A stretch of 64,000 bases of DNA, from positions 22,562-86,561 of the forward strand of contig CAZBQQ010000003.1 of the NCBI GenBank assembly GCA_964493965.1, read 5' to 3'. This document shows positions 4,313-43,551 of the stretch, piece after piece. The position numbers were made by a program, and so were the translations under genes. The stretch is from an uncultured Solibacteraceae bacterium (GTDB lineage Bacteria > Acidobacteriota > Terriglobia > Bryobacterales > Bryobacteraceae). The notes under the pieces were generated by a model. That model saw only the letters and a list, made by a program, of their open reading frames with translations. It had not been told where the DNA came from and made no database searches. Every line of letters starts with the position of its first letter. Within the stretch, counting starts at the first letter, position 1.

Positions 4313-4326
4313 AGGGGAGGTTTCCG

Positions 4327-4740: not shown

Positions 4741-4753
4741 GGAGGGAGCGCCT

Positions 4754-5149: not shown

Positions 5150-5160
5150 GGATCCGCGCT

Positions 5161-7269: not shown

Positions 7270-7279
7270 TCGGAGCACG

Positions 7280-9334: not shown

Positions 9335-9365
9335 CCGGACCGAACCATCGCAAAACGGAGGCAGC

Positions 9366-10979: not shown

Positions 10980-10994
10980 AAGGAGAGATCCAGC

Positions 10995-11585: not shown

Positions 11586-11612
11586 TTCCAGCACTGAACG
11601 GAGGGACGCAGC

Positions 11613-16030: not shown

Positions 16031-16040
16031 AGGATCGGCT

Positions 16041-19806: not shown

Positions 19807-21444
19807 ATGGCTGAAGACCCGCAACAGACCGACTTGATGTTCCCTGTCTTGGATGACGCTCAGATCGCGAGGCTCGCTGCATTCGCCGAACAGCGAACCG
19901 TACAGCCGGGCGAAATCGTTTACGACCAGGGCGATGACAGCCATGGGGTCTTTATCGTACTCCAGGGCAGTATCGAGATCATTGGTGTTACGGGCCGGCA
20001 GGAGACCGAGCTCAGAATCCTTGGCCCGGGGAAGTTCACGGGAGAAGTGAATCAGCTCTCGGGCCGGCGCAGCCTGGTCCGATGCCGGGCGCACGAAGCG
20101 AGCACGCTGCTCGAGCTTGGCAGGGCATCACTGCGGCGGATCATGCAGTCGGACGTCGCGCTTGGCGAGATTTTTCTGCGCTCCTTCGTGCTGCGCCGCG
20201 TGTATCTGATCGCCAACTCCGTAGGCGACGCGGTGCTGATCGGATCCAGCCATTCCGGCGACACTTTACGACTGAAAAGCTTCCTGTCCCGCAACGGCCA
20301 TCCCCATACCTATGTGGACGTCGAGCGCGATCCCGATGTGCAGGGGATGCTCGATCACTTCGGGATTCAGGTGACGGAGATCCCGGTGCTGATCTGCCGT
20401 GGGGAGTTGGTGCTTCGGAACCCCACCAATGCGGAGGCCGCTGCGTGCTTTGGTTTGAATGCAGGGGTCGACGAGGGCGCAGTATACGACTTGATCGTGG
20501 TTGGTGCGGGACCGAGCGGGCTTGCCGCGGCGGTTTACGGAGCCTCGGAGGGGCTGAATGTGCTGGTGCTCGAGGGCAACGCGCCGGGAGGCCAAGCCGG
20601 CGCGAGTTCCAGGATCGAGAACTATCTCGGTTTTCCCATGGGGATTTCGGGCCAGGATCTCGCGAACCGCGCGTTCGTGCAGGCGGAGAAGTTCGGCGCA
20701 CAGATCCTGGTGGCACGTGCGGCGCGCGCCTTAAAATGCGCCCGTGCGCCCTACGCGATCGAACTGGACGATGGAGGATCCGTTCGGGGGCGCAGCATCA
20801 TTTTGGCGGCTGGCGCGCAATACCGAAAGCTGCCTCTGCCGAAGCTGGCGCGGTTCGAGGGCGCCGGTGTCTACTACGGCGCGACGCAGGTCGAGGCCCA
20901 GCTATGCAGCAACGAGGAAGTCGTCGTTGTCGGAGGAGGAAACTCCGCCGGGCAAGCGGCGATGTTCCTTTCCGGGATCGCCAAGCACGTCTACCTTCTG
21001 GTTCGCGGCCCGGGGCTTGCCGACACGATGTCCCGATACCTGGTTTCCCGAATCGAGGCCTGCCAAACCATCACTCTCAAGGCGTGGACCCAAATCGAAG
21101 AACTCGATGGCGACGCGCACCTCGAGCGTGTTCGTTGGCGAGCCAGAGACGAGGAGACGGCCGAGACCCACGAGGTCCGCCACGTGTTCCTGATGACTGG
21201 TGCGAATCCCAACACCGCATGGCTCGGAGGATGTTTGGCGCTTGACGGCAAACAGTTCGTCAAAACCGGCACCGACCTGGGGCCGGAGTGGTCCTTGAGC
21301 CGTGCGCCGTATATGCTCGAGACGAGTCTGCCCGGCGTTTTTGCTGTCGGAGATATCCGCTCCGGGAGCGTGAAGCGCGTGGCGTCGGCGGTGGGCGAAG
21401 GTTCGATGGCGGTCCAGTTCGTACACAAGGTGTTGGCGGCGTAG
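19807..21444 (+). CDS. cyclic-nucleotide-binding domain fused to thioredoxin-reductase-like FAD oxidoreductase
   Basis: 545 aa. The N-terminal CAP_ED-like region reads GEIVYDQGDDSHGVFIVLQGSIEI...GPGKFTGEVNQLSGRR. The Rossmann motif is DLIVVGAGPSGLAAAVYGASEGL and the second motif is VVVVGGGNSAGQAA. The TrxR CxxC position reads GATQVEAQLCSNEE, so no CxxC is present. Confidence 0.85.
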   Translation: MAEDPQQTDLMFPVLDDAQIARLAAFAEQRTVQPGEIVYDQGDDSHGVFIVLQGSIEIIGVTGRQETELRILGPGKFTGEVNQLSGRRSLVRCRAHEASTLLELGRASLRRIMQSDVALGEIFLRSFVLRRVYLIANSVGDAVLIGSSHSGDTLRLKSFLSRNGHPHTYVDVERDPDVQGMLDHFGIQVTEIPVLICRGELVLRNPTNAEAAACFGLNAGVDEGAVYDLIVVGAGPSGLAAAVYGASEGLNVLVLEGNAPGGQAGASSRIENYLGFPMGISGQDLANRAFVQAEKFGAQILVARAARALKCARAPYAIELDDGGSVRGRSIILAAGAQYRKLPLPKLARFEGAGVYYGATQVEAQLCSNEEVVVVGGGNSAGQAAMFLSGIAKHVYLLVRGPGLADTMSRYLVSRIEACQTITLKAWTQIEELDGDAHLERVRWRARDEETAETHEVRHVFLMTGANPNTAWLGGCLALDGKQFVKTGTDLGPEWSLSRAPYMLETSLPGVFAVGDIRSGSVKRVASAVGEGSMAVQFVHKVLAA

Positions 21445-21448
21445 CGGT

Positions 21449-22288
21449 ATGTCCGCACCTTCCGGCCCTCCGTATGTTACGGTGAAGCAAATGATGCTCG
21501 GAGGGGCTGAGGAGGTCCAGCGCCTTGCCTGTCGGGAGGTGCGCGGTGGGAATCGTCTCGCTGCGTTCTCGGCGGAGTTGCCGGGATTGGCGGGCTGGAT
21601 TTCGTGCCGACCGCTCGAACCTTCTACACGCGGCGGAGACCTCTATTACATGTCCGCTTGCAGCCACGGCGTGATCGCCCGGGTTGTCCTGGCGGACGTA
21701 TCCGGCCATGGCGAAGCGGTCAGCGCCGCGGCCGGCCGTTTGCGCGACTCGTTGCGGCAGCATGTCGAGAGCTGGGATCAATCCGCCTTGATCCAGGAGC
21801 TGAACGAGAACTTTCTGAGGACCGCGGAGAGCCCGCAGTTTGCCACGGCTTTCGTGGCCAGCTTCTACTCGGATTCCGGGGAGCTACTGTTTACGAACGC
21901 CGGTCAGGTGCCTCCTCTCTGGTATCGTGCCGCAGCACGGGAGTGGAACCTGCTATTGGACTCCACACCGCTCAGCAAAGAGATTGTTGACCTTCCACTA
22001 GGGCTCATTGCGGGAACTTCCTACCGCCAGACGGCGGTCCAGTTGGAGCCCCGGGACCTCCTGTTGGTCTTCACCGACGGGATCAGCGAGTCCTGGGATG
22101 CATCCGGTGCGCAATTAGGCCTGGACGGTTTGCTTTCCGCCGCCCGAAATCTGCCCACGGAATCCCCGGTAGCAGCCGGCCGAGGGCTGCTGGAGGCGGT
22201 GGCGCGGTTTCGCGGGACAGCGCCACAGACCGATGACGAAACGGTATTGGCCTTCGAGAGGCGCCTGCCTGGAGGTGGCAATGGGTAA
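21449..22288 (+). CDS. PP2C-type (SpoIIE/RsbU-like) serine phosphatase
   Basis: 279 aa. It carries the GGDLYY...VLADVSGHGEAVSAAAG...FVASFY...LLFTNAG...LLVFTDGISE...DDETVLAFE motifs of SpoIIE-family phosphatases. Its end overlaps the next gene by 8 nt. Confidence 0.8.
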   Translation: MSAPSGPPYVTVKQMMLGGAEEVQRLACREVRGGNRLAAFSAELPGLAGWISCRPLEPSTRGGDLYYMSACSHGVIARVVLADVSGHGEAVSAAAGRLRDSLRQHVESWDQSALIQELNENFLRTAESPQFATAFVASFYSDSGELLFTNAGQVPPLWYRAAAREWNLLLDSTPLSKEIVDLPLGLIAGTSYRQTAVQLEPRDLLLVFTDGISESWDASGAQLGLDGLLSAARNLPTESPVAAGRGLLEAVARFRGTAPQTDDETVLAFERRLPGGGNG

Positions 22289-22710
22289 CCCTCCGCACGG
22301 CCTGCTACTCAAGTTCTCGATGCCGAGCGACCCGCGATATTTGCCCGTGGTCCGCGGCGCTATCGGGCCTCTGGCCGCACTGATTGGCTGGGATGAATCC
22401 GAATGCGATGCAATCGTCCTGGCGATACACGAAGCCCTCGCCAATGTCATCACGCATGCCTATCACAACCGCACCGACGGTTTGATGGAGCTGGAATGCA
22501 GGGAGAGCGCGGACGGCCTGGAGATCGCATTGTTGGACAACGGCGACGCGCCGGACCGGTCAAAAATCTGCGCGCGCGAAAATGGGCGGCGAGCAACCGG
22601 GCGGCCTTGGAACGCACATCATCCGGAACGTGATGGACGAAGTTTCCTACCAGGAATCGCCGGCGGGAAATCGTTTTGTGGCGAGCAAGCGGTTCAGGAA
22701 GGCGCCATGA
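22281..22710 (+). pseudogene. RsbW-like anti-sigma-factor serine kinase (HATPase_c), frameshifted
   Basis: The N-terminal part is in frame 0 (MGNPPHGLLLKF...IHEALANVITHAY...LEIALLDNGDAPD). The G2-box and C-terminus (GGLGTHIIRNVMDEVSYQESPAGNRFVASKRFRKAP*) are in the +1 frame and end at TGA 22708-22710, overlapping the STAS ATG. The frame switch lies between about 22560 and 22590; A-runs at 22562-22566 and 22579-22582 are candidate indel sites. Confidence 0.7.
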
Positions 22711-23036
22711 AGATCACCGTGCGTGAGGTGGGAGCGGCGAAGGTTGTGGAGGTGGATGGAGACGTGGATCTCGGCACTTCTTCGGAACTCCGCCGCACTC
22801 TTCTCGCCGCCCTGCCGACGGGGGGCAGGCTGGCACTCAACCTGGCGGCGATCCGGTACATCGACAGCTCCGGAATCGCCACCCTTATCGAAGTGTTGAA
22901 GCGGTCGCAGAATCTGAAGAAGGAGTTCGTTCTGTTCGGGCTGACACCCAGGGTGCAAGAGGTGTTTCGGCTCACCCATGTAATTCGTATCTTTCAAGTC
23001 TTTCAAACTGAGCAGGAGGCATTGGGGGTGTCGTAA
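22707..23036 (+). CDS. STAS-domain protein (anti-sigma-factor antagonist RsbV/SpoIIAA-like or MlaB-like)
   Basis: 109 aa. MKITVREVGAAKVVEVDGDVDLGTSSELRRTLL...LNLAAIRYIDSSGIATLIEVLK...LFGLTPRVQEVFRLT has the conserved phosphorylatable DSSG. An ATGA overlap lies upstream and a TAATG overlap downstream. Confidence 0.85.
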   Translation: MKITVREVGAAKVVEVDGDVDLGTSSELRRTLLAALPTGGRLALNLAAIRYIDSSGIATLIEVLKRSQNLKKEFVLFGLTPRVQEVFRLTHVIRIFQVFQTEQEALGVS

Positions 23037-23255
23037 TGCAGTGGGTGGCAGAGGTGGGCGGGGCAACCGAGCGAAGCATCGCGTACGTTGGCGGACTGGC
23101 CGAGATTGCCGTCCAATCGCTGCGATTGCTGTTTCTCTCCCCGCTGAAGACCAGCCGGATGCTCCAACGGGCGGTCCATGAAGCCATGGCCGTGGGCGTC
23201 GGCGCAATCCCCATCACCTCATTGATCACCTTCTTTGTAGGGGTCATCCTCAGGG
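23036..23255 (+). pseudogene. 5' stub (~73 codons) of an MlaE-type ABC transporter permease gene
   Basis: The translation ...AVQSLRLLFLSPLKTSRMLQRAVHEAMAVGVGAIPITSLITFFVGVIL matches the N-terminus of MlaE/Ttg2B permeases. Similarity is lost after about nt 23252, and the remaining ~190 codons are absent. Confidence 0.6.
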
Positions 23256-23259
23256 CAAG

Positions 23260-23733
23260 TTGGACGGTCCTGTTCTGCTGGTGGGCGAAATCACGACACC
23301 GGAATCTCTCGAGGACGGCCGGATTCGGTACAGGAAAGGGTCCAACGAGGCAGGCGCGTATGAGTATCATCGCTGGACGGAGCGGCCCGGATCGATGGTC
23401 CGCGACGCACTGCTGCGCGCCCTGCGGGACTCGGGACAGTACCGGCGCGTGCTTAATTCGGGAAGTTCGACCAACGGCGACTACCTGGTGCGAGGAATGC
23501 TGGACGAGTTCGACGAAGTGGATAGCTCCTCCATTCGGACCAAGATCTCGCTGCATGTCGAGGTGGTAGACCGGAAGGCCAACCAGACTGTCTGGGATCG
23601 CACGGCGGAGCGAGAGGAGCAGGTCAGTGGCAACACAGTGGTCGAGGTGGTGCGATCGATGGAGCGCAACCTGCAACAACTTGTGGGCGAAACGGCGGGT
23701 GAGATCGACAGGTTCCTTGCCGAGCGGCGCTGA
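23260..23733 (+). pseudogene. 5'-truncated ABC-transport auxiliary lipoprotein (DUF330/PqiC-YmbA-like)
   Basis: PVLLVGEITTPESLEDGRIRYRKGSNEAGAYEYHRWTERPGSMVRDALLRALRDSG...GDYLVRGMLDEFDEVD fits the family. No signal peptide or lipobox is present, and the only starts are TTG or internal. Confidence 0.6.
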
Positions 23734-23744
23734 GTGAGCGCCTG

Positions 23745-23759
23745 AGCCGGGACCCGGCT
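23745..23759 (+). terminator. weak candidate hairpin (AGCCGG-GAC-CCGGCT) after the lipoprotein remnant
   Basis: A 6-bp GC stem with a 3-nt loop lies 12 nt after the stop. There is no U-tract. Confidence 0.25.
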
Positions 23760-24007
23760 TGCGCGACGGCGCATGCGCGGCTGTAGGGACTTTTGTAGGG
23801 AGCCTCCTTGCGAATCGGGCATAACGGAGAACATTGGTACAGGTCCGAGGCGCCACGCATGAAGCCCTCGAAGGCGAGCCAGCCGCGAGAAAACTCGAGA
23901 GAAGCCATCCAGACCTTGCGGCGCGGCGCTGGCGCGCGCAGGGCGATGCCGCGCTCTCGAATTTCTAGCTCGTTCGCGACTGCGCCGGGGCTCGGAACGA
24001 GACTGGT

Positions 24008-27000
24008 TCAGGCTGGCGGGAGACGAGGGCCGGGCCTGACGGTTCGGATGGCGAGCACCAGCAGGATCCCGAGCGAGAGCAGACTGATCCCATCGGCCAG
24101 GCGGCGCGGCGGCGTGCGGGTCCACTCCGCATCGAGCGTGTGTTCTCCGGCGGGAACCCGGAACCGGATCAGGCCGGTCGGGTCCGCCGGCTGAGTGGAG
24201 ACCGGCGACCCGTCGATTCGCACCACCCAGCCCGGGAACCAGGCGATCGGCATCTCCGCCGTGCCGCCGGCGGCCGTGCGGATCCGTCCGGACCAGGAAA
24301 CGGGCGTAAGGCGGCCTTGCCAGACCACCACTTCGCCGCCGGGAATTCGCGCCGGACGTGGATCGTACGCCGGCCAGGTTTTCACCCACCGCGGGACGTA
24401 TTCGGCCGCAGTCGTCACTTCAATTCCGCGCATGGCGATTCGTTGCGGGGTCCACAGCGTCAGGTCCATGTCGCGGAATCGCCAAGGCTGACAGTGGGCC
24501 AGGCCGGGCAGGATCAAGAGCGCCAGAGCGGCGATCGCAGCGCCGGCCCGCCAGCGCGGGAGCGTGCCGATCAGCGCGCCGAGCGGCGCCACCAGCAGCG
24601 CCACACACAGGGTCACCGGTCCCAGCAAGCGCCACGGGAACTCGACCATTTGCAGAAGGGGCATGCGATCCCACAGCGGCGCCGCGACGTCGAGCATCAG
24701 GATCGCGAGGCCCGCCGCCGCGCCGGCGAAAAACCACAGCCACGGCCACTCTGCGTGAGCGTGTGTGCATGGCATCGCACCGAAGCTCACGCGACGAAGA
24801 TGACCTCGCCGGCGGGACCACAGAATCCAGATTGCGGCAGTCGCAGCCAGCAGCAGGTGGCTCCATCCCAGAGCGAACGACATGCCGTCCTGGTCGCCCG
24901 CCACCGAGATCCCGTATCCCCACGGCGAGTAGAACAACTGGTGCAGGTAAACAAAATGGTTCTTGTAGTTCAGGTAACCTTCGAGCAGGCGGGCGAGACC
25001 GACGTACTGCCGTTCCGCGAGCGACGGCAGCCACACGCAAGCCCCCAGGCCGAGGCCCAGCAGAAACCCGTAAGCCTGATGGCGCAGCAGGCGCCACGAG
25101 TGCGCGGTCCACGCGGTGAAGACCAGAAACGCGATCAGCAGCGGCGTGAACAGCAAAGCCGCCGCGTTGTGGCTCAACAGGACGCCCGCATACGCCGCCG
25201 CTCCCGCCAGCAGGTACCCGCGCTTGCCGGTTTTGGCGTAGGCTCCGAAGCCATACAGCGTCAGCGCGAAGAACGGAAACGCGGCGAACTCGGCGAGGGC
25301 CGAGCGCACATAGAGGTCGACGGCGAAATAGGGCGCGTAGAGATAGGCCGCCGTTCCGAACCATCCGCCCCACGGACCGAAATAGAGCCGGCACAACAGG
25401 AACATGCCGGCGGCCGACGCCAGTACCAGTGTCACCGCCGCAAGATTGACGGAGGTCAGGAAATCGAAGCCCGCGAGATGCCAGAACTCGGACAGGTAGT
25501 AGATGACGGGCGGATTGAATTCGAAAAGCGGTTGACCCGTGCCGCGGCTCAAGTCGGGCGCCCAGCGCGGAAACAGGATCCCGTGGGAGATGTTTTCGTG
25601 AAACTCCTCGAGGCGCGGAAAGTACTCCAGCGCGTCGTGTCCGTCGGGGAGCCGCGGAGTGATGAGCGAAACGGCGACCGGCAGAGCCAGCGCCACCAGG
25701 CCCGCCGCGACCGCGACCCGCCGGGGTACGGCATGCTGCGCCCATTTCCACAGGACGGGCCGCGGTCCCACGCGAGCGAGGACCAGCGCGAGCAGGCACC
25801 CGCCCAGAAGGAGGATCGCCTTCGCGTGGTCCGCTTCGTACCGGCATACGATCTTGTGCGGCCCCGGCGTCAACGGCAAGCCCACGAACCCCGGTGAGAG
25901 CACGAGCGTCGGTTCCGGCCGCCCATCCACGTACGCCTTCCAGTTGGGATGCCAGGTCATGCGAAAAAGGGCAAAGCTCGGCCGCAGCGCCTGAACCTGG
26001 GCCTCGAAGGACCCGCCGTCCTGGCGTTCGCTGGCGACGAAACCGGGGACGCCCATGGAAAAAGCCGGGAAGAGCTGCTGCTCGGGATCGAGACGGGGCG
26101 CCTGGGTCTGGTCGCCGTAAAGATCGAGGCGCAGATGCTGCTTCCTGGCTGCCTGATCGCTGTGCAGCCAGCGATCGTTCACGTCGTAGAAGTTGTCGCG
26201 TGTGGTGTGGACGGCGAAGGGCGCGTCCACCACGTCAAAGTAGCCCACACCAGGCGCGTCGAAGATACGGAAGGGCCCGATCCGCTCGCGCGGAGCCAGA
26301 AACGGAGGCAACGCGACGCCCTCGGCCGGAGCAATCACGCTGCGGATATTGAAGAGCAGGTAGTGGGTGGGATCCATCTCGTCAAAGCGCACCATGACAT
26401 CGCCGGTGAGCGCCATGGAGTGGTACAGGAAAGCCACCGCAGGCACTTCCGCCCGGCTCAGAAACGCGTAGAAGGGAACATCGCCCACCTTGAACTTGCC
26501 GCCCCAGCCCGCGGCGAGCCCCGGGTAGACGCGGCCTCCGCGTTCGCGCACGCGCGCGATGACGGCATCGATCGCATTCCGGTTCTCGTGGTACTCCGCC
26601 AGGTTCCGGCGCCCCCAAACGGCATTGTCCGAGAGGAGATGGGCGCGCTCGCGGATCATCGGGTAAAGCAGGAGCGCGGTGACCGCTACCGCCGCGGCGA
26701 AATGCCAGCGCGCGGCGAGCCAGCGCCAGAGCGCGGCCAGCCCGATGGCAGCCGCCAGCACCAGGAAGACGTGCGCGCCGCCGATGACACGATGCACCTG
26801 CATGTCCTCGGGCACACCCAGCATCTTGAGCGACGGCCCCCAGAACGGCCGCCCGAAGAACATCAGTAGCCACAGGAGGGCGCCGGATACGACGAACGTC
26901 CCCGCGAGGTGAAGCCGGCGCTTGTGCCGGTAGTCCCAGAACCACACCACGATGCCCGCCAGCGCCAGCAGGGAGAGCACGGGCAGGCGGCCATGGTCGA

Positions 27001-27853
27001 GCAGCTCGCCGGTGAAGAGCATCTTCAGCACCTGCCAGGCGCCGAAGGAGTCCCACTTCCACGTCGGCTCCCAGCGGCTGTGGTTGATGAAGCCGCCGTC
27101 CTGGAGCATGGGCACGAGTTGAAACGCGGACAGCAGGAGCGCGATGGCGCCGATCCACAAGGTGCGCAGAATACGCGGCCTCCGCGGCGTCTCCCTGTCG
27201 GGCAGAAATGCCAGCAGGCACAGGGTCACAGCGGCGATGTACCCGTAGATGAAATGGGAAAGAAACGTGAGCGCCAGAAAGAGGGCGCACCATCCGAGGC
27301 GCCGGCCCCGGCGGATCGCCGCGAAGCCGAAGCCGATGGCAAGGAGCAGGAAGTGCGTGGCCACGGCCTGGGTAAACAACCCGCTGCCCGCCCACAGGTA
27401 GCTGCCGTACTCGACGCCGTAAAGGAAGTTCGTCGAGACCAGCGGCGCCAGGAGGCTCGCCGCCGCAGCTTCCCACCACTCCAAAGACAGCAATCGCGCC
27501 GTCACGAAGAATGTCAGCGGCAGGAGCAGGACGGAAAGGAACCGCGCCCACACGAAGACGGTCATCAGCGACAACGTCTTCGCCGAGGCGAAGTACACCA
27601 GCACGACCAGGGCGTGGGCCAGCGGCTGATAGGTACGCAGGACCGGGTAGCCCAGCGACCACTCCGGCGACCAGAAATCCAGCGGGCTTCCGCGCTCCGC
27701 GGCCCTGGCCATGCCCTGGATCAGGCCGAAGTGGAATACGTTGTCGTTCAGGTCGACACGGCTGATGGAAAGCTCCGGCCAGAGGCCTACGGCGCCGGCG
27801 ATAAGCACGCAGGCCAGCAGGAGCAGCGGGGCCGCCCGCGAGCCGGCCATCAT
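24008..27853 (-). CDS. 1281-aa polytopic membrane protein with two tandem GT-C-like modules (putative glycosyltransferase)
   Basis: Many hydrophobic helices fall in two similar halves, each followed by a soluble domain. The second half has HENISHGILFPRWAPDLSRGTGQPLFEFNPPVIYY, as in the membrane proteins annotated as PTPS-related (COG5617-like). The ATG abuts the stop of the upstream collagen-like gene (TAGATGATG). Confidence 0.7.
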   Translation of the reverse strand: MMAGSRAAPLLLLACVLIAGAVGLWPELSISRVDLNDNVFHFGLIQGMARAAERGSPLDFWSPEWSLGYPVLRTYQPLAHALVVLVYFASAKTLSLMTVFVWARFLSVLLLPLTFFVTARLLSLEWWEAAAASLLAPLVSTNFLYGVEYGSYLWAGSGLFTQAVATHFLLLAIGFGFAAIRRGRRLGWCALFLALTFLSHFIYGYIAAVTLCLLAFLPDRETPRRPRILRTLWIGAIALLLSAFQLVPMLQDGGFINHSRWEPTWKWDSFGAWQVLKMLFTGELLDHGRLPVLSLLALAGIVVWFWDYRHKRRLHLAGTFVVSGALLWLLMFFGRPFWGPSLKMLGVPEDMQVHRVIGGAHVFLVLAAAIGLAALWRWLAARWHFAAAVAVTALLLYPMIRERAHLLSDNAVWGRRNLAEYHENRNAIDAVIARVRERGGRVYPGLAAGWGGKFKVGDVPFYAFLSRAEVPAVAFLYHSMALTGDVMVRFDEMDPTHYLLFNIRSVIAPAEGVALPPFLAPRERIGPFRIFDAPGVGYFDVVDAPFAVHTTRDNFYDVNDRWLHSDQAARKQHLRLDLYGDQTQAPRLDPEQQLFPAFSMGVPGFVASERQDGGSFEAQVQALRPSFALFRMTWHPNWKAYVDGRPEPTLVLSPGFVGLPLTPGPHKIVCRYEADHAKAILLLGGCLLALVLARVGPRPVLWKWAQHAVPRRVAVAAGLVALALPVAVSLITPRLPDGHDALEYFPRLEEFHENISHGILFPRWAPDLSRGTGQPLFEFNPPVIYYLSEFWHLAGFDFLTSVNLAAVTLVLASAAGMFLLCRLYFGPWGGWFGTAAYLYAPYFAVDLYVRSALAEFAAFPFFALTLYGFGAYAKTGKRGYLLAGAAAYAGVLLSHNAAALLFTPLLIAFLVFTAWTAHSWRLLRHQAYGFLLGLGLGACVWLPSLAERQYVGLARLLEGYLNYKNHFVYLHQLFYSPWGYGISVAGDQDGMSFALGWSHLLLAATAAIWILWSRRRGHLRRVSFGAMPCTHAHAEWPWLWFFAGAAAGLAILMLDVAAPLWDRMPLLQMVEFPWRLLGPVTLCVALLVAPLGALIGTLPRWRAGAAIAALALLILPGLAHCQPWRFRDMDLTLWTPQRIAMRGIEVTTAAEYVPRWVKTWPAYDPRPARIPGGEVVVWQGRLTPVSWSGRIRTAAGGTAEMPIAWFPGWVVRIDGSPVSTQPADPTGLIRFRVPAGEHTLDAEWTRTPPRRLADGISLLSLGILLVLAIRTVRPGPRLPPA

Positions 27854-29128
27854 CTACTGGGTGGCGACGACGTACCAGTGATGGTTGCCGTCGCTGAAGA
27901 GCATGATCGGCCCGAGCGCTGTCATTGTCGACGTTCCCACCGGAGCCTCGTTGAGGATGGTATCGCCGGACTGCGCCGTGATCTGGACCCGGATGGTGCT
28001 GGAAACGAGACTGGGGTTGACCGGAATCACCACGAGCCGCCTGCCGCTCACGGTGGCGTGCGGCAAGGTGAAATTGCCGGGCCCGCCGGACGGATTGTTG
28101 GTCTCGTAGTACAAGAACGTGTCGCTATCCGGGATGGTGTAGCCGCCGGAGGGGTGGATCGTGGGGTCCATGCTGAACTGATTGCCGGTGGGCCCGTTCG
28201 CTCCCGTGGGGCCAGTGGCGCCGGTGGCGCCTGCCGGGCCGAGCCCGCCGGCCAGTCCCTGGGCTCCCGTTGCGCCAGCGGGGCCGGTGGCTCCGACAGG
28301 TCCGGTGGGGCCGGTAGCGCCGGCCGCGCCCGCGAGTCCCTGAGTTCCAATCGCGCCGGCGGCGCCGGTCGGACCGACTGGGCCGGTGGGGCCGGTAGCG
28401 CCGGCTGCACCCGCCAGTCCCTGGGCTCCCGTTGCCCCGGCTGGACCGGTGGCGCCGAAGGGTCCGGTGGGGCCGGTAGCGCCGGTGGCTCCCTTAGGTC
28501 CATTGACGCCGGCGGGTCCGGTGGCGCCGGTTGGTCCGGCGGCGCCCGGTTGCCCGGCAGCGCCGGCAGGTCCGGCCGGTGCGATCACGGCGATCTCCAG
28601 CTCCGGAGCGTGGCTGGTGGCGGTGTTCTCCTTGCTATCGAGAGCGACGTTGGTTGACCCGATACCGGTGATCGAGATGCCGAAGTTACTTGCCGGGGTG
28701 GCCAGCCAGCCGTTGACCTGCGCCGTGACGTCAAACAGCACAAACGTATTCGCGGTACTCACGGGCGCGGTGGCAAAGGGCAGGGCCACGGACGGCTGCA
28801 CGGAGAAGGTCACCGTAGACTCTGCCCACGAGGATGTCACTGCAGACAGGCTGATGGATCCGGAGGTAGTCACCTTATCGACATAGACCTTGAGGTAGGC
28901 CACGGCGACGGGGCCGGCCGGGATCGAAGAAAGATCGAACTGCACCAGACCGGCACTTCCGGAGCCGATGTTCAGAGTGACGGCCGTGCCGAAATTGGAG
29001 CCGGACGCGGCGGACGAGACATATGTGTCCTGTTGGACCGGGATATCGGCGGCCCGCAGCGAGGGAAGACACACCGCGGCGGCAACAAGCAGAAACGTCG
29101 ATGCTCTGACAAGAGATTGGCTGCCCAT
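27854..29128 (-). CDS. secreted collagen-like repeat protein, paralog 1 (DNRLRE-like N-domain, ~43 Gly-X-Y triplets, C-terminal globular domain)
   Basis: The start is ATG 29128 with an AGGAGA RBS and the signal peptide [26 protein letters not shown]. The N-domain reads QDTYVSS...NFG...[10 protein letters not shown]. Uninterrupted GXY runs span nt 28184-28573 ([25 protein letters not shown]...). The C-terminus ends [13 protein letters not shown]. Confidence 0.85.
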
Positions 29129-29139
29129 GATGTTCTCCT

Positions 29140-30387
29140 CTAGTTCGTCCACAGAACCAACCAGCGCGACGCGCCATCCGAGACCAATGTGATGCCGGCC
29201 TGCTGGCTTTGGCTGGTGAGCGCTGGTGGGAAGTTGGTATCCCAAATGCCGTCGCTGCCCCCAGGGATCACCGTGAGGAGGTGACCGTTGTACGGAACCG
29301 TGGCCTGCAGGCGGATCTGCTTGCCTGCGCCGCTCGCGGCACTGGGCAACTGGATGGTCGCCGCGGTAGTTGAGTTATCCACCAGGAAGACGAAGTGCGT
29401 GTCGGAATTGGCGATTACGGCGCCGTTGCTGAGCGTGGTGACGGAATCGTGGTTCGCGGCGGGACCTACGGGGCCGGTTGCACCGGCGGGTCCGGGGGCC
29501 CCGGGGGCACCCAGCGCGCCGGTTGGTCCGGTGGGACCCGCAGCGCCGGCTGGGCCCGCCGATCCGGCCGCGCCCGTGGCACCGGTGGGGCCGACAGGTC
29601 CGGTGGGGCCAGTGGGACCGTTCACTCCGGCGACTCCGGCAGCACCAATGGCTCCCGCCGGACCGGTAGCGCCTACAGGACCGGTGGGGCCAGTGGGGCC
29701 CGCAACTCCGGTCACTCCCGCGGGTCCGGGCGCACCCGTGTTACCCGTGGCCCCGGCGCTCCCAGCCGGGCCGGCCGCACCGGTTGTTCCGGCGGGGCCC
29801 TGCGCACCGGTGGGGCCCGCTGGCCCCGCGGCGCCGGAGAAGAGCACGTCCAGGAAGGCAGCGTGGCTGGTGGTGACGCTTTCCTTGCTGTCGATGTAGA
29901 TCGTCGTAGAGGGAATCTGGGCGCTGATGATGAACCCGTTGTTGGGACTGCCACCCAACCAGGAGATCACCTGCGCGGTGACGTCGACTTCGACCCAACC
30001 GACCGTGGTGGTCGGGACTCCGGACGCGACCACCGTGCCAGGCGCAGGTCCGCCAACTCCGGAAACGGTGGATTCCGACCAGGGCGCATTGGCAGCGGCG
30101 ATGTTCACGGGGCCGGGAAAGCTGACCTTGCTCACGTAGAACCACAGCCGGGCCCGGGCCACCCTAGCCGCCGTACCGCTGAGGTGGCTGAGGTCGAACA
30201 GCAGCAGACCTTGCGCCGCGGTACCGCCGCCGACGCTGATGGCGGTCAGGCCTCCGTGGTTGGAGGCATCGCCGGTGACGATGTAGGTGTCGCCCGCCAG
30301 GGGCGCGGTCTCGCCCCGGGCCAGCACGGGAAGAAGAGCCCAGCCGGCCGCCAGAAACCATGCGAGTTTCGAGAATTTGTGGCTCAT
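29140..30387 (-). CDS. secreted collagen-like repeat protein, paralog 2
   Basis: 415 aa with a signal peptide and a GGAGAG RBS. The N-domain reads GDTYIVTGD...[13 protein letters not shown] triplets span nt 29458-29835. The C-terminus ends [14 protein letters not shown]. Confidence 0.85.
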
Positions 30388-30399
30388 AGCGTTCTCTCC

Positions 30400-31668
30400 C
30401 TAGTCCCACTGAACGGGGAACCAGCGATGGTTGCCGTCCGAGATCACATGAAGGCGGTAGTTGATGGGAAACGATGTCAAGTTTAGGAACACCGCGTTGT
30501 GAACGATGATTTCATCGCCGCTTGCGGCCAGGACATCGAATGTGTTGCCGTTGGTAGTGAAATCATTGCCGACGATCCACACATCCTTGCCCGCCGTTCC
30601 GGGGCCGGCGGACGGCAAGGTGATCTGGGCATTGCCGGCGCTGGTGTTATTGACCAGGATGACGTTTTGCGTGAGAGATGATGAGATGGTTCCGGCCGGC
30701 TGCTCCGGCGAAATCGTAAAGCTATTGAGGATCGCTCCGGCTGGCCCGGCGGCCCCGGCAGCGCCGGGGGCTCCCGCAGCGCCCGTGAATCCGGCGGGGC
30801 CCGTGGCACCGACGGGGCCGGCCGCGCCCGCGAGTCCTTGGGCGCCGGCTGTTCCCGCGGCGCCGGCTGGCCCGGCTAGGCCGGCAGGTCCGGTGGCGCC
30901 AGCGGCTCCGGCGAGCCCTTGAGCGCCGGCTGTTCCCGCAGTCCCGGTGGGGCCTTGGGGACCGACGACTCCTTGTGGGCCTTGCGCGCCAGCCAGTCCC
31001 TGGGCGCCGGTAACGCCGGTATCGCCCTTCGGGCTGGCGCCGGCGGGACCGGTAACGCCAGTGGGACCGGCGGGACCTGTGGCACCGGCGGGGCCGGAGG
31101 GTCCGGCAGGTGGCGCGAGAACGATTTCGAGCACGGCCGGATGGCTGGTGGCGGTGCTCTCCTTGCTTTCGAAGCCCACCGAGGTGGTGGAGCTGGCCTG
31201 TATGAGAATCCCGTACGCCGACGCGCCGCTCACCCAGGACTGCACCAGGGCTGTGACCGGAATCGCAAGGTAGGAGTTCGCCGTGGTGACGCTGACGGGT
31301 CCGGCGGCCAGCGCTCCCGGCGCCAGGCCAGACAGACCGTTGACGGTGCCTTCTGTCCACGCCACGTTGGCGGCATAGAGGTTGATGGTGCCCGGCGAGC
31401 CGACCTTGTTGACAAACAGCCGCAGGGATGCGCTCGCGACATTGGCGGCAGTAACTCCGGGGGGCAGCTTACTCAGGTCGAACTGAAATAACCCCAGATA
31501 GCCCTGCGCCCCGCCCACGCTTACCGTAGCCGCCGCGCCGACGTTAACCCCCGAGCCGGGCAGGATGTACGCATCGCCGGTCAGCGGCACGGTCTGTGCC
31601 TGCGTCACCGCCTGGCAGAGAGCCAAGGCAGCAATTCCCCATAGAGCCCTTCCGAGAAACCCCATCAT
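30400..31668 (-). CDS. secreted collagen-like repeat protein, paralog 3
   Basis: 422 aa with a signal peptide and a GAGGGGG RBS. The N-domain reads GDAYILPG...[13 protein letters not shown] triplets span nt 30736-31104 with one interruption (GASPKGDTG). The C-terminus ends [14 protein letters not shown]. Confidence 0.85.
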
Positions 31669-31705
31669 GTCCCCCTCTGCTACTCAACCAAAACTGCCGT
31701 GAACT

Positions 31706-32386
31706 TTACCTGCGCCGCCGCGCCAGCACGAACGCGCAGAGCCCGAGCGAACCTAACAGGAACGCGGCGGGTTCAGGCACGCCGGTGATCTCGGCGGCCG
31801 TACCAACGCCGGTGATGTCTACCGCCCAGGAACCGTTTCGCTGGGCGCCTGGGCCCTCGCAGAAGGGATTCCCTCCGCAGCCGTTGGCGGCGGTGAAATT
31901 GCCGTTGCCATCCTCGGAGAAGCCGTCGCCATAAGTGAGCCCATTCGCGAAGTTATCGTTCTCGGTGAGAACCAGGGCGTAAGTGTGCCCGGCGAGGAGC
32001 GTGGTGAGCTCAAGCAGCGAGTCGTAAGCGTTGAGCGTAGCCGGATCGGCAGCCACCACCCCTGTGCCGTCGTCGTTGCTGTCGACCAACGCGCTGGAGG
32101 CAGTGAGGCCGCCGGTGGCGTCGAAAAGCGACAGGACCGGATTGAACCCGCCGGGCGCTATGGCGTCGCCGGCAGCGTCGTTGCCGCCAGCATAGCTCCA
32201 GGTTCGCATCACCACGTCGCTCGACGGAGCGGTAAACAGGAACAGCTGCCGCTGATCGTCCTGTGTGAAGGTGCCGCTGAACGAGAAACTGGCGGCGGAC
32301 GCTACACCCGCGAGCATACAGAATGCGAAAGCACCGATTTCCAGGCGTCTCAGGCGCACGGGCAAACCTCCGAACCGGCTGTTCAT
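31706..32386 (-). CDS. PEP-CTERM sorting-signal protein (secreted, Asp/Gly-rich domain)
   Basis: 226 aa with an N-terminal signal. The C-terminal GVPEPAAFLLGSLGLCAFVLARRRR is a PEP motif plus TM helix plus Arg cluster. Confidence 0.85.
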   Translation of the reverse strand: MNSRFGGLPVRLRRLEIGAFAFCMLAGVASAASFSFSGTFTQDDQRQLFLFTAPSSDVVMRTWSYAGGNDAAGDAIAPGGFNPVLSLFDATGGLTASSALVDSNDDGTGVVAADPATLNAYDSLLELTTLLAGHTYALVLTENDNFANGLTYGDGFSEDGNGNFTAANGCGGNPFCEGPGAQRNGSWAVDITGVGTAAEITGVPEPAAFLLGSLGLCAFVLARRRR

Positions 32387-32559
32387 GGCAACTAAGTGGA
32401 GGACAGACCGAGCCGAAACGCCAACTCAGACGCAGCCGCAGACGATGCGTCCGAGCATTCAGCCCTCAACCACTCATTCTTGTAACGGGAGTACTGTGTC
32501 CATATTCGCATAAGTGCCGCCGCGCGGGAAGGGGGTGAGAAGAAAAAAAGAGCCGGTTT

Positions 32560-32841
32560 CTAGTCCTCCGGCGGATCCCAGGGAAGTCGGTCGGGCGGGG
32601 CCGGCACCCGCACCGGCTCGGGCGGCGATTCGCCGGCATTGCGTTTCAGAGTCCGGTTGGCCCGCGCATAGACGCGGTTCGCTGCCGTCGTCCGCCACCG
32701 CGCCTGCGTCTTCTTCCGCCGCGCCGCCTGGCACTCCGGCTTCGAGCAGGCCCGCTGCCGCGCTCCCACCCGCGCATCGCATCGGAACCAGTGCCGGCAG
32801 ATCGAGCAGGGGCGCTTGGGGACGCAAGGTTCGGATGAGGG
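32560..32841 (-). pseudogene. Cys-rich small protein remnant (CxxC ... CSKPEC) lacking a usable start
   Basis: The frame opens directly after a TGA and reads PSSEPCVPKRPCSICRHWFRCDARVGARQRACSKPECQAARRKKTQARWRTTAANRVYARANR... The only start is a GTG downstream of the first CxxC, so the gene is either degenerate or mis-started. Confidence 0.3.
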
Positions 32842-33318
32842 TCAGTTGCCGCTCGCGCAGGTCACTTCTGGTGAGCGCCGAAGGCCATCGTCCGACATCA
32901 GATAATTATCAGAAGCAGGGCCCGTTGGCGTGCCGGCATCCCCGCCAAGCGTACTCCTTGAAACTGCTGGTGGTGCCCTTCGGCGTGAGGCTGTGCCGTC
33001 AAGCAGGGCCTGCCATTCCGGCCTATACGCGCATTTGGGGCGCGCGCAGTAGTGGCGCGCAAGCGTCCGCCCTCTCACAGTCGCGGTGCTGGGTGATGGT
33101 AGAAGTCCCTCGCGGATGCAGCCTGCGGTTGGTCGACTGTCCCTCCTTAGCACGAGGTGGTCCCGGGCGTGCTCCCTGCGCTTAGAGGCAGATGCCGGCG
33201 GGCCGAGATGCAGAACCTGCATCTGGAGTGCGAAATCTGCCGCGGCTCACGCGTGAGGGCGCCGGGCAGCGCTCGCAGGCGGCGGTGGTCACGAACGTGC
33301 CTCCCTTCAAGGGAAGCC

Positions 33319-39108: not shown

Positions 39109-39810
39109 TCAATCAGCCGGAGGCAGAGTGAAGTGGAACGTCGATCCAGCCCCGGGCGCCGATTCCATCCACATTCGGCCGCCATGCCACTCGATGGCCT
39201 TCTTGCAGAATGCGAGTCCCAGCCCGTTCCCAGGGTGTTCTCTTCCGTGCAGGCGCCGGAAGACGCCGAAGATGCGGCCCTGGAATACCGGGGCGATGCC
39301 AGGGCCGTTGTCTCGCACGGAAAACACCCACTCGGCGTCCTGGCGTCTGGACGAAACGTGAACGCGCGCAGGAGGTGCGTCGCAGTATTCGATGCCGTTC
39401 CGGATCAGGTGATGCAGGACCTTAGCCAGCATTTCGAAGTCCCCCATTACCGCCGGCAGAGGGTCGTGGGTGACGATTGCCCCCCGCTCCACTGTCTGTT
39501 TGTCCGCGTAGAGCAGCGCCTGGCTCAGCACCGCTTCCATGTCCGTGCGGGAGGCCTGCCGGCCGCTCCCGTCCGTGGCCCAGTAGTCCACCATCGCGGC
39601 GAGCTGTGACTCCATGCGCGCCGCTCCCTCGCGGATGTGGTCGAGGTACACGCCTGCATCCGGATCGAGCCGGCCGGCATAGGTCTCGGCCATCAGCTGG
39701 CCATAGGCGGCCACGTCGCGGAGAGACTCGCGCAGGTTGTGCGCCGCCCTCGAGACAAACTCCTCGAAGTCCGCGTTCGCCTGCTCCAACCGGTGATCAG
39801 AGTCGCCCAT
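39109..39810 (-). CDS. cytoplasmic sensor histidine kinase (HisKA + HATPase_c)
   Basis: The start is ATG 39810; the track ORF extends falsely to 40074. The H-box is FVSRAAHNLRESLRD, and the N/G boxes are LIRNGIEY, RDNGPGI and GNGLGLAFCKK. Confidence 0.85.
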   Translation of the reverse strand: MGDSDHRLEQANADFEEFVSRAAHNLRESLRDVAAYGQLMAETYAGRLDPDAGVYLDHIREGAARMESQLAAMVDYWATDGSGRQASRTDMEAVLSQALLYADKQTVERGAIVTHDPLPAVMGDFEMLAKVLHHLIRNGIEYCDAPPARVHVSSRRQDAEWVFSVRDNGPGIAPVFQGRIFGVFRRLHGREHPGNGLGLAFCKKAIEWHGGRMWMESAPGAGSTFHFTLPPAD

Positions 39811-42800
39811 TTTGAGTGCCCGCGCCGAGGTGTATCGGAATCGTGAACTTGAACGTGGCGCCCCGCCCTGGTTCCGATTCCACCCAGATCCTTCCGCCCT
39901 GGCGCTCGACGACCTTCTTGCAGAGCGCAAGGCCCATGCCGGTGCCGGGGATTTCGCTTCCGTGCAAGCGCTTGAACATGCCGAACACCCGTTCGGAGTC
40001 CTCCGCACCGATACCGGCTCCGTTGTCCCGCACCGCGAACAGCCACCCTTCCGCGTCTCTCTCCGCCGAAACATGGATTCTCGGCACTTCCTTGCCTCTG
40101 TACTTGATGGAATTGGAAATGAGGTTCTGGAAAAGCTGCATCAGCATAACCTCATCAGCGGCCACCGTTGGCAATGGATCGGAAGTTATGGTCGCGCCAC
40201 CCTCCTCGATGGCCGCCTGGAGGTTCAGCAGCGCCTTGGCGAGAACGGCGCCGGAATCGATCGCGGCGACTCTGCCCGGTTCCCGCTCGGTAATTTCCCA
40301 ATAGGCAAGCAGGGCCTTGAGCAGCGCCTCTATCCTCAGGGCGCCCTCCACGGAATAGGAAATGTACTTGTCCGCGTCGTCGCCCAGCTTTCCCTTGTAC
40401 TCCCGGCCCAGGAGCTCCGTAAAGCTCACGACCATCCGCAGAGGCTCCTGCAGGTCGTGCGTGAGCGCATAGGCAAAATGCTGCAGTTCGGCGTTGGTTT
40501 TCCGAAGCGACTCTTCAGCCACCTTGCGGTCGGTTGCGTCCTCAATCGCCAGAAGGATCGTCCGCGCCTGCGCATTCGGATTGAACACCTCGCTGGCGTT
40601 GAGCAGCATCACCTTGCGTCCGACATGTTCAAACTCGTGTGTCACCTCGAAATCGCGGAACGTCGAGTGCGCCGGCAGAATGTTCTCCAGCAGTTCGCGC
40701 AGCTTCGGGATGTTCCATTGTCCGTTCCCGAGGTCGTAGATCAGCCGCCCCTCCGTATCCTCCCGCGCTGCCCGGAACGTGCCGTAGAACGCCCGGTTCG
40801 CCTTCATGACCTGCAGATTCTGGTCCAGGATTACCAGAGGCTCCCGCACCGTCTCGACAATCGCTTCGGCGAAGTCCAGCCCGCGCTTGGCGGCATCGAT
40901 ATCGATCAACATCAGAACGGCGCCGTCGATCTTGCCATCCGTCCCCACCGACGGCAGGATGCGGAGCGAATACCAGCGGCCGTGCGCATCGCGAACATCG
41001 CGCGGCTTCCGGTTGCCGCCTTCCATCGCATCCAGCAGCAACCGCCGCAGGTCGGGCAGCTCCATTTGCGGCTGAAGGTCCGTTAGCGACCGCCCCACAT
41101 CGGAAGCGATGAGATTCAGCAGGGGCTCCATGGCGCGCGTAAAGCGGCGGATGCGCAAATCGTGCCCCACCATCACCAGGGGGATGCTGATGCTCTCGAG
41201 AAGATTGGTCAGGTCGCGGTTGACCTGGCTGTATTCGACGTTGCTGATCTTGAGCTCCTCGTTCAGCGTGTTCAGTTCTTCGTTGGCCGATTCCAGCTCC
41301 TCTTGCGCGGTTTCCAGCTCCTCGTTCCCCGCCTGCGCCTCTTCATTTGCCGCCTTCAACTCTTCCAGGGTGGATGCATGATCCTCAACGATCGATTGCA
41401 GATACTCTTTGGTCGCTACAATCTCGCGCCGCAGCCGCACGCTTCCCCCCTTGTCCTGTGTCGCGGGCTTGCGCGTCGCCTTCGGGCCACGCCTCGGTTC
41501 GACGTCTTCGAACAGGACCAGGAAATGCCGTCCCTTGGAGGCGGATGAGCCCGTAAACGGGATGACTTTGATCTTCACGTCTCTCAGCTGGCCGCCGTCC
41601 TCGATCCGGAAGCCCTCTTCTTTGGCTGGGGCGTTCGTCTGTCTGGCAGCTCGGATGGCCTTTCCTAGTCCGGCAATCAGGCCTTCGCGCGCTAGTTTCA
41701 GAAGATTCTGAGTCGGCTCGCCCGGCGACAGTTCCAGGTACGGGGATGTGCGGCCACGGACCTGAACGATGTTCATGGCGTCGTCAATGACGGCTCCCGG
41801 GGGGCCGTGCTCGGCCAACACCAGGCGGTCGGCTTCTCTCGCCAGGTCCGGCTCCGGCCTCCCCTCGGCAGTCCTCGGCCGCAGATCCAGCCGGCCCTCC
41901 GTGCGGCGGCCTGTGCCCGAGTGCGGCGCCGGTCGATCCGTGACCGGCCGCACGCTATAGATCCTGTGGCTCTTTTCTATCTGATGAAAGGACTCGGAAA
42001 GCGAGCCGATGCTCTCCGACGGCCCGAGCACCAGGAAGCCGCTGGGCTTGAGCGCGTAACGCAGGATCGACAGTACCTTGTGCTGTAACATCGTTCCGAG
42101 GTAGATCAGCACGTTGCAGCAACTGATCAGGTCCAGCTTGGAGAAGGGCGGGTCCTCGGTCACATTGTGCCTGGCAAAAATGCACACGTCACGGATGCAC
42201 TTCGCGATCTGGTATCCACGTTCGGTCGTGGTGAAGAACCGCGCCAACCGCTGCGGCGAGACATTCTCCAAGGCGGCGCTCGTATACGTGCCGGCGCGGG
42301 CTTTCTCGATCGCCGCCTCGCTGATATCCGTGGCGAAAATCTCGAACGGAACGCTGACTTTCCGGTCCTCCAGGACTTCCATCAAACAGATGGCCATCGA
42401 ATAGGCTTCCTCGCCCGTGGCACATCCAGCCACCCAGATCCGGATCGGATCGTCGGGCCCCCTGTTTTCAAGCAGGGCCGGAAGCACCCTCTTCTTCAAC
42501 TCCATGAAGACCGCTGGTTCCCGGAAGAACGCAGTGACGGTGATCAGACAGTCCGCGCACAACGCGAGTGCTTCCTCGCGGCTCTCCTCGAGATGCCGGC
42601 CGTAGCTTTCCAGCGTTGCGAATCCGCGCATGCCCATGCGCCGCTTGATACGCCGCTGGAGCGTGCTGTGCTTGTAGTGAGTGAAGTCCACTCCCGTGGC
42701 GGTCCGCACCAGCCGGAGTATCGCGGTCAGTTCCGGATCCGCTGCATCGGCATCCTCAGGCTCGATCGGGACCCGGGAACCCCGCGCGATGGCCACCAGT

Positions 42801-43450: not shown

Positions 43451-43551
43451 CCGCCACCTAACCTTTCCCGCCGGGAGGAGCGTAGCACGTGTGGTGCCAA
43501 TCTCGCGCCAGTCGCGGTTGGCGGCCAGCCAATGGATCGATTGTAGCGCCC

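Follow-up and report, generated by a model that had tools for sequence, protein, structure and literature searches.

Tandem genes for three collagen-like chains with stalks of matched length in Bryobacteraceae and Solibacteraceae: comparative evidence for a possible three-chain fibre

The collagen-like proteins of bacteria serve as models of collagen and as recombinant biomaterials. All those known are homotrimers according to a 2022 review, so that the heterotrimeric collagens of animals are hard to mimic with them (PMC8968730). The nearest precedent for a different gene arrangement comes from Pasteuria ramosa, in which triplets of collagen-like (PCL) genes contain one gene from each of three groups, in fixed order and in the same orientation (PMC13233619). 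Here we describe a locus of similar arrangement in a 64,000-nucleotide (nt) stretch of DNA from an uncultured Solibacteraceae bacterium (contig CAZBQQ010000003.1, positions 22,562 to 86,561; hereafter the window). Three paralogous neighbouring genes on the minus strand (window 27854-31668) encode chains A, B and C, each made of an N-terminal head, a collagen stalk and a C-terminal globular domain or knob. They are a new form of bacterial collagen-like protein, conserved in Bryobacteraceae and Solibacteraceae, and the comparison of related loci points to a three-chain molecule of fixed length.

The chains resemble BclA and BclB of the Bacillus anthracis group in having an uncharged, Thr-rich Gly-X-Y stalk (GPT/GAT) and an all-β C-terminal globular domain, and the Thr glycosylation of BclA is a plausible parallel for the window stalks. 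However, BclA is a homotrimer of Firmicutes spores without a CBM96 head, a Sec signal peptide or a PEP-CTERM partner, and its C-terminal domain is TNF/C1q-like, whereas that of the window chains is modelled as a domain of the gp10/tailspike type. Like the chains, Scl1, Scl2 and the Legionella protein Lcl are secreted bacterial proteins with a globular domain and a collagen stalk. Their NCBIfam models match the window chains over the collagen tract only, with 59-79 bits against cut-offs of 325-500, which leaves the chains outside these families. The Scl proteins also differ in forming homotrimers with charge-rich stalks, while the window stalks are nearly uncharged and no LPXTG motif is found in A, B or C, whose C-termini read ...WFPVQWD, ...LVLWTN and ...YVVATQ.

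The Pasteuria genes, by contrast, belong to a Firmicute endospore parasite in which many triplets turn over rapidly, and they lack the CBM96 head, the PEP-CTERM partner and the gp10-like knob; the acidobacterial cassette looks conserved between species, with stalk length strictly kept. In function, not homology, the arrangement recalls C1q, with its three clustered genes, matched stalks and a C-terminal globular domain that sets chain composition, as well as the collectins and ficolins, in which lectin-type heads on a collagen stalk give multivalent binding. The non-collagen domains of these animal proteins are unrelated in sequence and fold, however, and the heads of the window chains are N-terminal and their host bacterial. 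Finally, the founder of the CBM96 family, TM6-N4 of the alginate lyase Dp0100, binds alginate via a Lys/Arg-rich groove (Lys10/22/25/27/31, Arg36 and Tyr159; PMC9971899). The window heads score above the cut-offs of both hidden Markov models (HMMs) for this type of domain, but they are acidic and fused to collagen, unlike the founder, which is fused to an enzyme and has a basic groove.

Chains A, B and C are 44-46% identical pairwise over their whole length in a three-way alignment in which D-x-Y, FDLS, SKE..TSH and SDG-x-x-x-W are invariant, and the TSH motif lies 12 residues from the first Gly of the tract in all three. The N-termini of A (24 amino acids, aa), B (25 aa) and C (26 aa), assigned by eye, are typical Sec signal peptides. 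The heads, about 160 aa long, match Pfam CBM96 (PF24517; E 3e-14 to 8e-24, 53-85 bits against a cut-off of 26) and NCBIfam DNRLRE_dom (NF033679; 66-92 bits against 34), and the collagen tracts match Pfam Collagen (PF01391; 62.9-66.8 bits against 27.2). The alignment and the HMM matches bear out the common layout of signal peptide, DNRLRE-like head, collagen tract and shared C-terminal domain proposed earlier by a model that saw the letters alone (the sequence-only reading). The heads are acidic, with isoelectric points of 4.1-5.0.

The tracts comprise 41, 42 and 44 Gly-X-Y triplets in A, B and C, respectively. The earlier count of about 40 triplets was thus right, but not the description of the tracts as uninterrupted, since that of A is broken after 8 triplets by two residues (GAS-PK-GDT) and then continues for 33 triplets; Gly periodicity is otherwise perfect. 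The tract boundaries given by that reading all lie within 6 nt of ours: those of B are exact, and the low-coordinate ends of A and C (the 3′ end on the coding strand) are shifted by 6 nt. The Pro-Lys break (window 31027-31032, chain A residues 213-214) has no counterpart in B or C. A tract in two runs, with a span indivisible by three, which would fit a similar break, is seen in the A orthologues of four related loci (L002, L009, L091 and L092) and is absent from those of four others (L003, L005, L007 and L083). An 81-nt super-period, corresponding to 27 residues or nine triplets, runs through the C tract (28238-28567; 3-4 copies, 71-79% matches) and is found in 2.2 copies in the A tract (30760-30941). 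The stalks contain 0-3 charged residues and abundant Ala, with Thr at 22-64% of the Y positions. Pro accounts for 11-17% of tract residues and favours the X position, which it fills in about 32-45% of the window's triplets.

The C-terminal domain, of about 105 aa with the invariant motifs LP-x-A, (G)D-x-I and SDG-x-x-x-W, was matched by no Pfam or NCBIfam model and by no PDB chain at the sequence level. An AlphaFold2 model computed from 39 sequences is all-β, with a predicted local distance difference test (pLDDT) score of 83 and a predicted TM-score (pTM) of 0.77. When this model was compared to the PDB with Foldseek, phage baseplate and tailspike modules led the matches (E 1e-4 to 5e-3, TM-score TMq 0.52-0.63). 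The best was a baseplate protein of Klebsiella phage KP1 (9f4b_FA, E 1e-4, TMq 0.63); T4 gp10 (5iv5_AC, E 2e-3), an Acinetobacter phage tailspike (24qj) and the N-terminal adaptor region of CBA120 TSP4 (7rej/7rfo, E 4e-3 to 5e-3, TMq up to 0.60) were matched too. Among predicted viral structures (BFVD), TMq reached about 0.7 with the ends of tail-fibre, minor-tail and collagen-repeat proteins of phages and giant viruses. As modelled, the C-terminal domain matches the fold class of the T4 gp10 and tailspike XD adaptor modules, a class that occurs in trimeric phage fibres and baseplates and also caps collagen-repeat proteins of phages and giant viruses. The window proteins differ from gp10 and TSP4 in that they belong to a cell, are exported by Sec and have no virion genes as neighbours. 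Nor did the Pfam T4_gp9_10 and Gp10_C models match A, B or C at E <= 0.01; they matched only in a remote relative (P0051) and in one Phage Tail Collar protein of locus L027.

Neither BclA nor C1q appears in the 50 best Foldseek matches, and in a phmmer search BclA (1wck) matched over the collagen tract only. A TNF/C1q-like fold was therefore rejected, and with it the BclA-type C-terminal domain of the sequence-only reading. An exhaustive profile search found the domain in 1589 representative proteins (E <= 1e-3), many of which have the same layout of CBM96, collagen and C-terminal domain in 420-510 aa. In the remote relative P0051, T4_gp9_10_N and collagen are joined to four copies of the C-terminal domain.

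Relatives were sought in one genome per species with the N-domain motif SKE[NS][TV][AST]TSH. The scan yielded 195 relatives, and the 77 loci kept are almost all from Acidobacteriota (Bryobacteraceae, Solibacteraceae, Acidobacteriaceae and Terriglobales), the nearest being that of a Bryobacteraceae metagenome-assembled genome with 82% identity. The acidobacterial host suggested by the sequence-only reading agrees with this distribution. A motif scan of metagenomes added at least 545 further relatives. A word-indexed protein search returned almost only fragments of about 100 aa, because short-read assemblies break inside collagen tracts. The annotations of the chain homologues go no further than 'DNRLRE domain-containing protein', 'Collagen triple helix repeat' or hypothetical, and in the literature searched no relevant paper was found on collagen-like proteins of Solibacter or Acidobacteria. 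A recombinant Solibacter usitatus collagen reportedly figures in the biomaterials literature.

The loci were then described with purpose-built HMMs as arrays of PEP-CTERM genes (F) and CBM96-collagen genes (N). An F gene followed by three N genes recurs in Bryobacteraceae and Solibacteraceae (loci L001-L010 and L079-L093) and, with 10 cases, FNNN is the commonest multi-gene array, next to 68 N and 17 FN arrays. In trees of the N-domain and of the C-domain the genes fall by position into three orthogroups, from which it follows that the triplication is older than these lineages and that A, B and C keep a fixed order. The heads and knobs of the paralogues are 33-44% identical.

The stalks of a cassette are matched in length. 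In residues, the A/B/C spans are 125/126/132 (window), 126/123/127, 126/123/132, 126/126/132 (twice), 125/123/132 and 126/122/129 in a short class, and 177/174/182, 177/174/177 (twice), 177/174/174 and 178/174/180 (twice) in a long class; none of the 13 complete cassettes mixes short and long stalks. The two classes correspond to two clades of a concatenated tree (96% bootstrap), which indicates a single evolutionary event in which all three genes shifted by 15-17 triplets on one branch. In the wider family, where spans range from 12 to 182 residues, tandem pairs correlate in length (r 0.84, permutation p 0.0014). Identity at X and Y positions is 0.34 between paralogues of one cassette, 0.40 between orthologues and 0.37 between non-orthologues of other cassettes. 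Since the value within cassettes is the lowest of the three, gene conversion was rejected as an explanation of the equal lengths. Within each clade stalk length is nearly invariant and stalk sequence drifts freely (X/Y identity between orthologues about 40%); it is stalk length, not stalk sequence, that selection keeps.

This near-constancy, on which independent assemblies agree, contradicts the earlier description of the repeats as prone to length variation. Contigs of independent public runs from rhizosphere and bog metagenomes read through every tract without gaps and with 0-1 differences. Locus L079, an independent 7.6-kb JGI metagenome contig, presents the five genes of the block described below in the window's order, with identical tract lengths, and shows 100% identity in the matched N-domain of chain C. 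The tracts, covered end to end in this way, passed the check for assembly artefacts that had been advised with the sequence-only reading, and an artefactual origin was rejected. In the gene C tract, two metagenome runs gave two alternative joints of low depth (about 2.7 against 7-9). Joint X3 (28330-28472, depth 2.6) skips 141 nt, and joint X2 (28371-28553, depth 2.8) skips 181 nt with one inserted base and would delete 20 triplets in phase. These joints may be rare length variants or artefacts of the de Bruijn graph.

The three consecutive minus-strand genes, with spacers of 12 and 11 nt that each carry GGAG as a ribosome-binding site, were confirmed as first read. The unit is nevertheless larger than three genes: the genes for a PEP-CTERM protein and for a 1281-aa membrane protein complete an operon-like block of five co-directional genes (PEP-CTERM, A, B, C and membrane protein) with spacers of 37, 12, 11 and 0 nt. 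The short spacers between A, B and C would fit coupled, approximately equimolar translation. The open reading frame (ORF) of chain C extends mechanically to a TTG at 29245, but the ATG at 29128 is preferred because it is preceded by AGGAG and agrees with the orthologues. An Rfam scan of 23000-33300 gave zero matches, no sigma-70-like site was detected in the 770 nt upstream of the block, and promoter and terminator scans were at chance level.

The reading that we favour, and hold with middling confidence, is that A, B and C are the chains of one collagen-like fibre, a heterotrimer whose length is fixed and which stands at the cell surface. Each chain would be exported by Sec. The three C-terminal β-sandwich domains, with their gp10/tailspike-adaptor-like fold, would, by analogy with C1q, pick one chain of each kind and nucleate a triple helix whose length is fixed. 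Collagen rises by 0.286 nm per residue, which would give a stalk of about 36 nm for the window (about 126 residues) and one of about 51 nm for the long-class clade. At its other end the fibre would display three CBM96/DNRLRE-type heads. The co-transcribed PEP-CTERM protein, of the DVUA0089 family, would be its cell-surface partner or anchor, and the translationally coupled GT39/YfhO-like membrane enzyme would glycosylate Thr in the Y positions of the near-uncharged stalks. A molecule with one A, one B and one C is suggested by the presence of exactly three paralogues in fixed order, with old divergence of heads and knobs, and by the short spacers with ribosome-binding sites, the equal spacing from TSH to Gly and the matched, co-shifting stalks. 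Three distinct co-encoded chains of matched helix length are found in all 13 complete cassettes. The proposal of the sequence-only reading that the proteins are possibly hetero-trimerising thus gains comparative support from the fixed-order orthogroups and from stalk lengths that match and shift together. That this fibre lies at the surface, binds a ligand, is anchored by the PEP-CTERM protein and carries sugars is our inference, as is its heterotrimeric assembly.

The PEP-CTERM protein is made of a signal peptide, a β-jelly-roll domain of about 150 aa and a C-terminal PEP-CTERM signal, VPEPAAFLLGSLGLCAFVLARRRR, recognized by Pfam PF07589 with 22.1 bits against a cut-off of 20.7. It matches NCBIfam NF038127 (DVUA0089 family) with an E of 1.3e-34, and its AlphaFold2 model has a pLDDT of 76. 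The gene lies directly 5′ of the CBM96-collagen genes in most related arrays and is the most constant neighbour of the family; its product, with 53-79% identity, is more conserved than the chains. No exosortase was found among the scanned ORFs of the 64-kb window. The protein is likely a cell-surface partner or anchor of the fibres, a tether suggested by gene linkage and by general knowledge of PEP-CTERM/exosortase systems. Its fold was also compared with known structures for a resemblance to collagen-binding domains, and gave only generic jelly-roll matches.

The 1281-aa protein matches PMT_2 (GT39) over its C-terminal half (26.8 bits, with a cut-off of 26.1; the whole protein scores 25.0) and the YfhO C-terminal region over its N-terminal half (26.4-27.8 bits against 28.5), with no PDB match by sequence. 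More than 400 full-length acidobacterial homologues, which NCBI names 'glycosyltransferase family 39 protein' or 'YfhO family protein', are known, and over 100 of them keep the format of 1270-1300 aa. It resembles two fused membrane modules, each ending in a similar periplasmic segment (W-x-P-x-W...DG-x-P); BLASTP between the halves gave a marginal E of 0.037. Of about 13 loci, about 5-6 have the gene next to the cassette, in varying positions: directly 3′ in the window, L079 and L080, 0.7 kb 3′ in L003 and L090, and 5′ in L006, L089, L007 and one further contig. An uncharged collagen helix lacks the electrostatic stabilisation seen in Scl2, and glycosylated Thr in Y positions is a known alternative stabiliser, as in BclA and the cuticle collagen of Riftia. 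The near-uncharged stalks with their many Y-position Thr make the protein a reasonable candidate for Thr glycosylation, and its sequence and position suggest, tentatively, a link to the stalks as a candidate periplasmic Thr glycosyltransferase.

Several observations weigh against a single surface fibre of this kind or against parts of it. Neither A, B nor C carries an anchoring signal of its own. The model of the PEP-CTERM protein retrieved generic jelly-roll domains only, at low TM-scores (the Tk-SP C-terminal domain, YPM, C-CPE and LipL32). The Pfam scores of the glycosyltransferase-like protein are borderline, and its family is mostly found away from cassettes, including four homologues on long contigs with no cassette nearby, which weakens the case for tight functional linkage. 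The heads show no evident counterpart of the basic groove with which the CBM96 founder binds alginate: they are acidic, and the first 40 residues of their mature form contain no Lys or Arg. The co-shift of the three stalks is a single event, so that the permutation p-values overstate independence and are descriptive only. A search for RNA runs holding the locus found none. Finally, equal height, if needed by three separate homotrimers, would likewise select for matched length.

This last point belongs to the strongest alternative, that of three separate homotrimeric fibres, AAA, BBB and CCC, standing at equal height in one surface layer as lectin-like stalks of differing specificity, which we consider possible though unlikely. 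It accounts for the length match almost as well as a heterotrimer does. The frequency of single-gene arrays (68 N and 17 FN) suits it, since the domain set presumably works as a homotrimer there, and the identity of 33-44% between heads and knobs is that expected of diversified specificity. Three independent pairs would also fit the equality of Collar and collagen gene numbers in related loci (3:3 and 1:1). It is less easily reconciled with exactly three genes per cassette in an order fixed across deep divergence, with a near-equal shift of all three stalks on one branch without gene conversion, or with the order NNN-KKK, rather than NK-NK-NK, where Collar genes (K) occur; the short spacers, too, would fit coupled and nearly equimolar synthesis of the three chains. 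We retain the mixed A:B:C fibre as the favoured reading. That the locus encodes the first natural bacterial heterotrimeric collagen in its full form, in which gp10-like knobs set the chains, length serves as a ruler and three lectin-type heads, a PEP-CTERM tether and Thr glycosylation by a GT-C enzyme come together, is doubtful.

The phage-type genes raise another alternative. In seven related cassettes, the collagen-like trio is followed 3′ by a tandem of three Phage Tail Collar genes (PF07484; about 170 aa each), and in nine single-gene arrays one Collar gene follows; there is none in the window's 64 kb. The Collar proteins lack an obvious signal peptide. In Solibacter usitatus, positive selection has been reported in tail-collar paralogues (PMC3174227). 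Fusions of CBM96, collagen and Collar were found in L018 (6061-7374) and L151 (6812-7867), confirmed by Pfam, and by jackhmmer profile only in L011 (7908-8903) and L137 (173-1285). As sequences, the fused proteins are a Rosetta-stone-type link between collagen-like chains and Collar proteins. A contractile-injection-system or tailocin-like locus lies 8.5 kb from the cassette, and its two large eCIS_core-domain proteins may be effectors. The three genes that separate it from the cassette look like a partner-switching regulatory module. The coordinates of all these features are given in Table 1.

Table 1. Positions of the five-gene block, of its sub-features and of phage-type and other genes.
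Feature	Sequence	Position	Strand	Basis or remark
PEP-CTERM protein, DVUA0089 ('FDP') family, 226 aa	window	31706..32386	-	first gene of block
Chain A, 422 aa	window	30400..31668	-	ORF, domain matches, alignment
Chain A signal peptide	window	31597-31668	-	read by eye
Chain A CBM96/DNRLRE domain	window	31105-31596	-	
Chain A collagen tract, 125 aa	window	30730-31104	-	8 triplets + PK break + 33 triplets
Chain A C-terminal gp10-like domain	window	30403-30729	-	
A-B spacer, 12 nt	window	30388..30399	-	GGAGAGAACGCT; carries GGAG (ribosome-binding site)
Chain B, 415 aa	window	29140..30387	-	ORF, domain matches, alignment
Chain B signal peptide	window	30313-30387	-	read by eye
Chain B CBM96/DNRLRE domain	window	29836-30312	-	
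Chain B collagen tract	window	29458-29835	-	42 triplets, zero charged residues
Chain B C-terminal domain	window	29143-29457	-	
B-C spacer, 11 nt	window	29129..29139	-	AGGAGAACATC; carries AGGAG (ribosome-binding site)
Chain C, 424 aa	window	27854..29128	-	ORF, domain matches, alignment
Chain C signal peptide	window	29051-29128	-	read by eye
Chain C CBM96/DNRLRE domain	window	28574-29050	-	
Chain C collagen tract	window	28178-28573	-	44 triplets, internal 81-nt super-period
Chain C C-terminal domain	window	27857-28177	-	
Polytopic membrane protein, GT39/YfhO-like, 1281 aa	window	24008..27853	-	begins right at end of C stop codon
Upstream intergenic region, 770 nt	window	32387..33156	-	presumed promoter/leader of block
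Contractile-injection-system or tailocin-like locus	window	1237-19346	+	
eCIS_core protein	window	1237-2097	+	
Phage_base_V/VgrG-like	window	2741-4312	+	
Baseplate_J	window	5161-7269	+	
Tail_P2_I with NHL repeat	window	7280-9334	+	
Two very large eCIS_core-domain proteins	window	12596-16030, 16041-19346	+	
Regulatory genes between eCIS locus and cassette	window	19807-23036	+	
cNMP-binding pyridine-nucleotide-disulphide oxidoreductase fusion	window	19807-21444	+	
SpoIIE-type phosphatase	window	21449-22288	+	
HATPase_c_2 + STAS fusion	window	22233-23036	+	
1316-aa fusion: CheB methylesterase, CheR methyltransferase, PAS domains, histidine-kinase ATPase domain	window	39797-43747	-	
Collar trio	L006	9411-10976		
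Collar trio	L008	9588-11201		
Collar trio	L010	9270-10853		
Collar trio	L083	6644-8200		
Collar trio	L084	4750-6312		
Collar trio	L089	5845-7410		
Collar trio	L091	8542-10150		

The three genes could be derived from phages and code for the tail fibres of a prophage, of a tailocin or of the window's contractile injection system, a reading that we regard as very improbable. The fold of the C-terminal domain, which matches baseplate, tailspike and tail-fibre modules, the distant relative with T4_gp9_10_N, collagen and four copies of this domain, the Collar genes 3′ of related cassettes and the nearby locus with its Phage_base_V, Baseplate_J, Tail_P2_I and eCIS_core domains all speak for it. Fibres assembled in the cytoplasm, however, generally lack signal peptides, and all three chains and their orthologues have N-terminal signal peptides. 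Moreover, the conserved partner of the chains is a PEP-CTERM protein, homologues of the eCIS genes occur in 0 of 158 related loci within flanks of 7-8 kb, and in the window the eCIS genes are on the opposite strand, with unrelated regulatory genes in between. Least probable of all is a reading of the Gly-X-Y tracts as flexible, low-complexity linkers that form no triple helix and belong to carbohydrate-binding proteins, whether periplasmic or secreted: the tracts' low imino-acid content (Pro 11-17% of tract residues) and near absence of charge pairs do predict a weak unmodified collagen helix, but Gly periodicity is perfect over 41-60 triplets and kept in every orthologue despite drift at X and Y, tract length is conserved, and BclA, likewise uncharged and rich in GPT, forms a triple helix.

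A mixed three-chain collagen has not yet been demonstrated in bacteria. If A, B and C do form a heterotrimeric fibre, their chain-sorting C-terminal domains of about 105 aa would be a testable and portable module for chain registration. For the Bryobacteraceae and Solibacteraceae, abundant but poorly understood Acidobacteria, the cassette would represent a conserved structure, probably of the cell surface, that has so far been annotated only domain by domain. The PEP-CTERM/exosortase system is associated with exopolysaccharide and floc formation, and the fibre may connect to it. Finally, a stalk whose length is strictly conserved while its sequence drifts is a clean example of selection acting on a molecular ruler.

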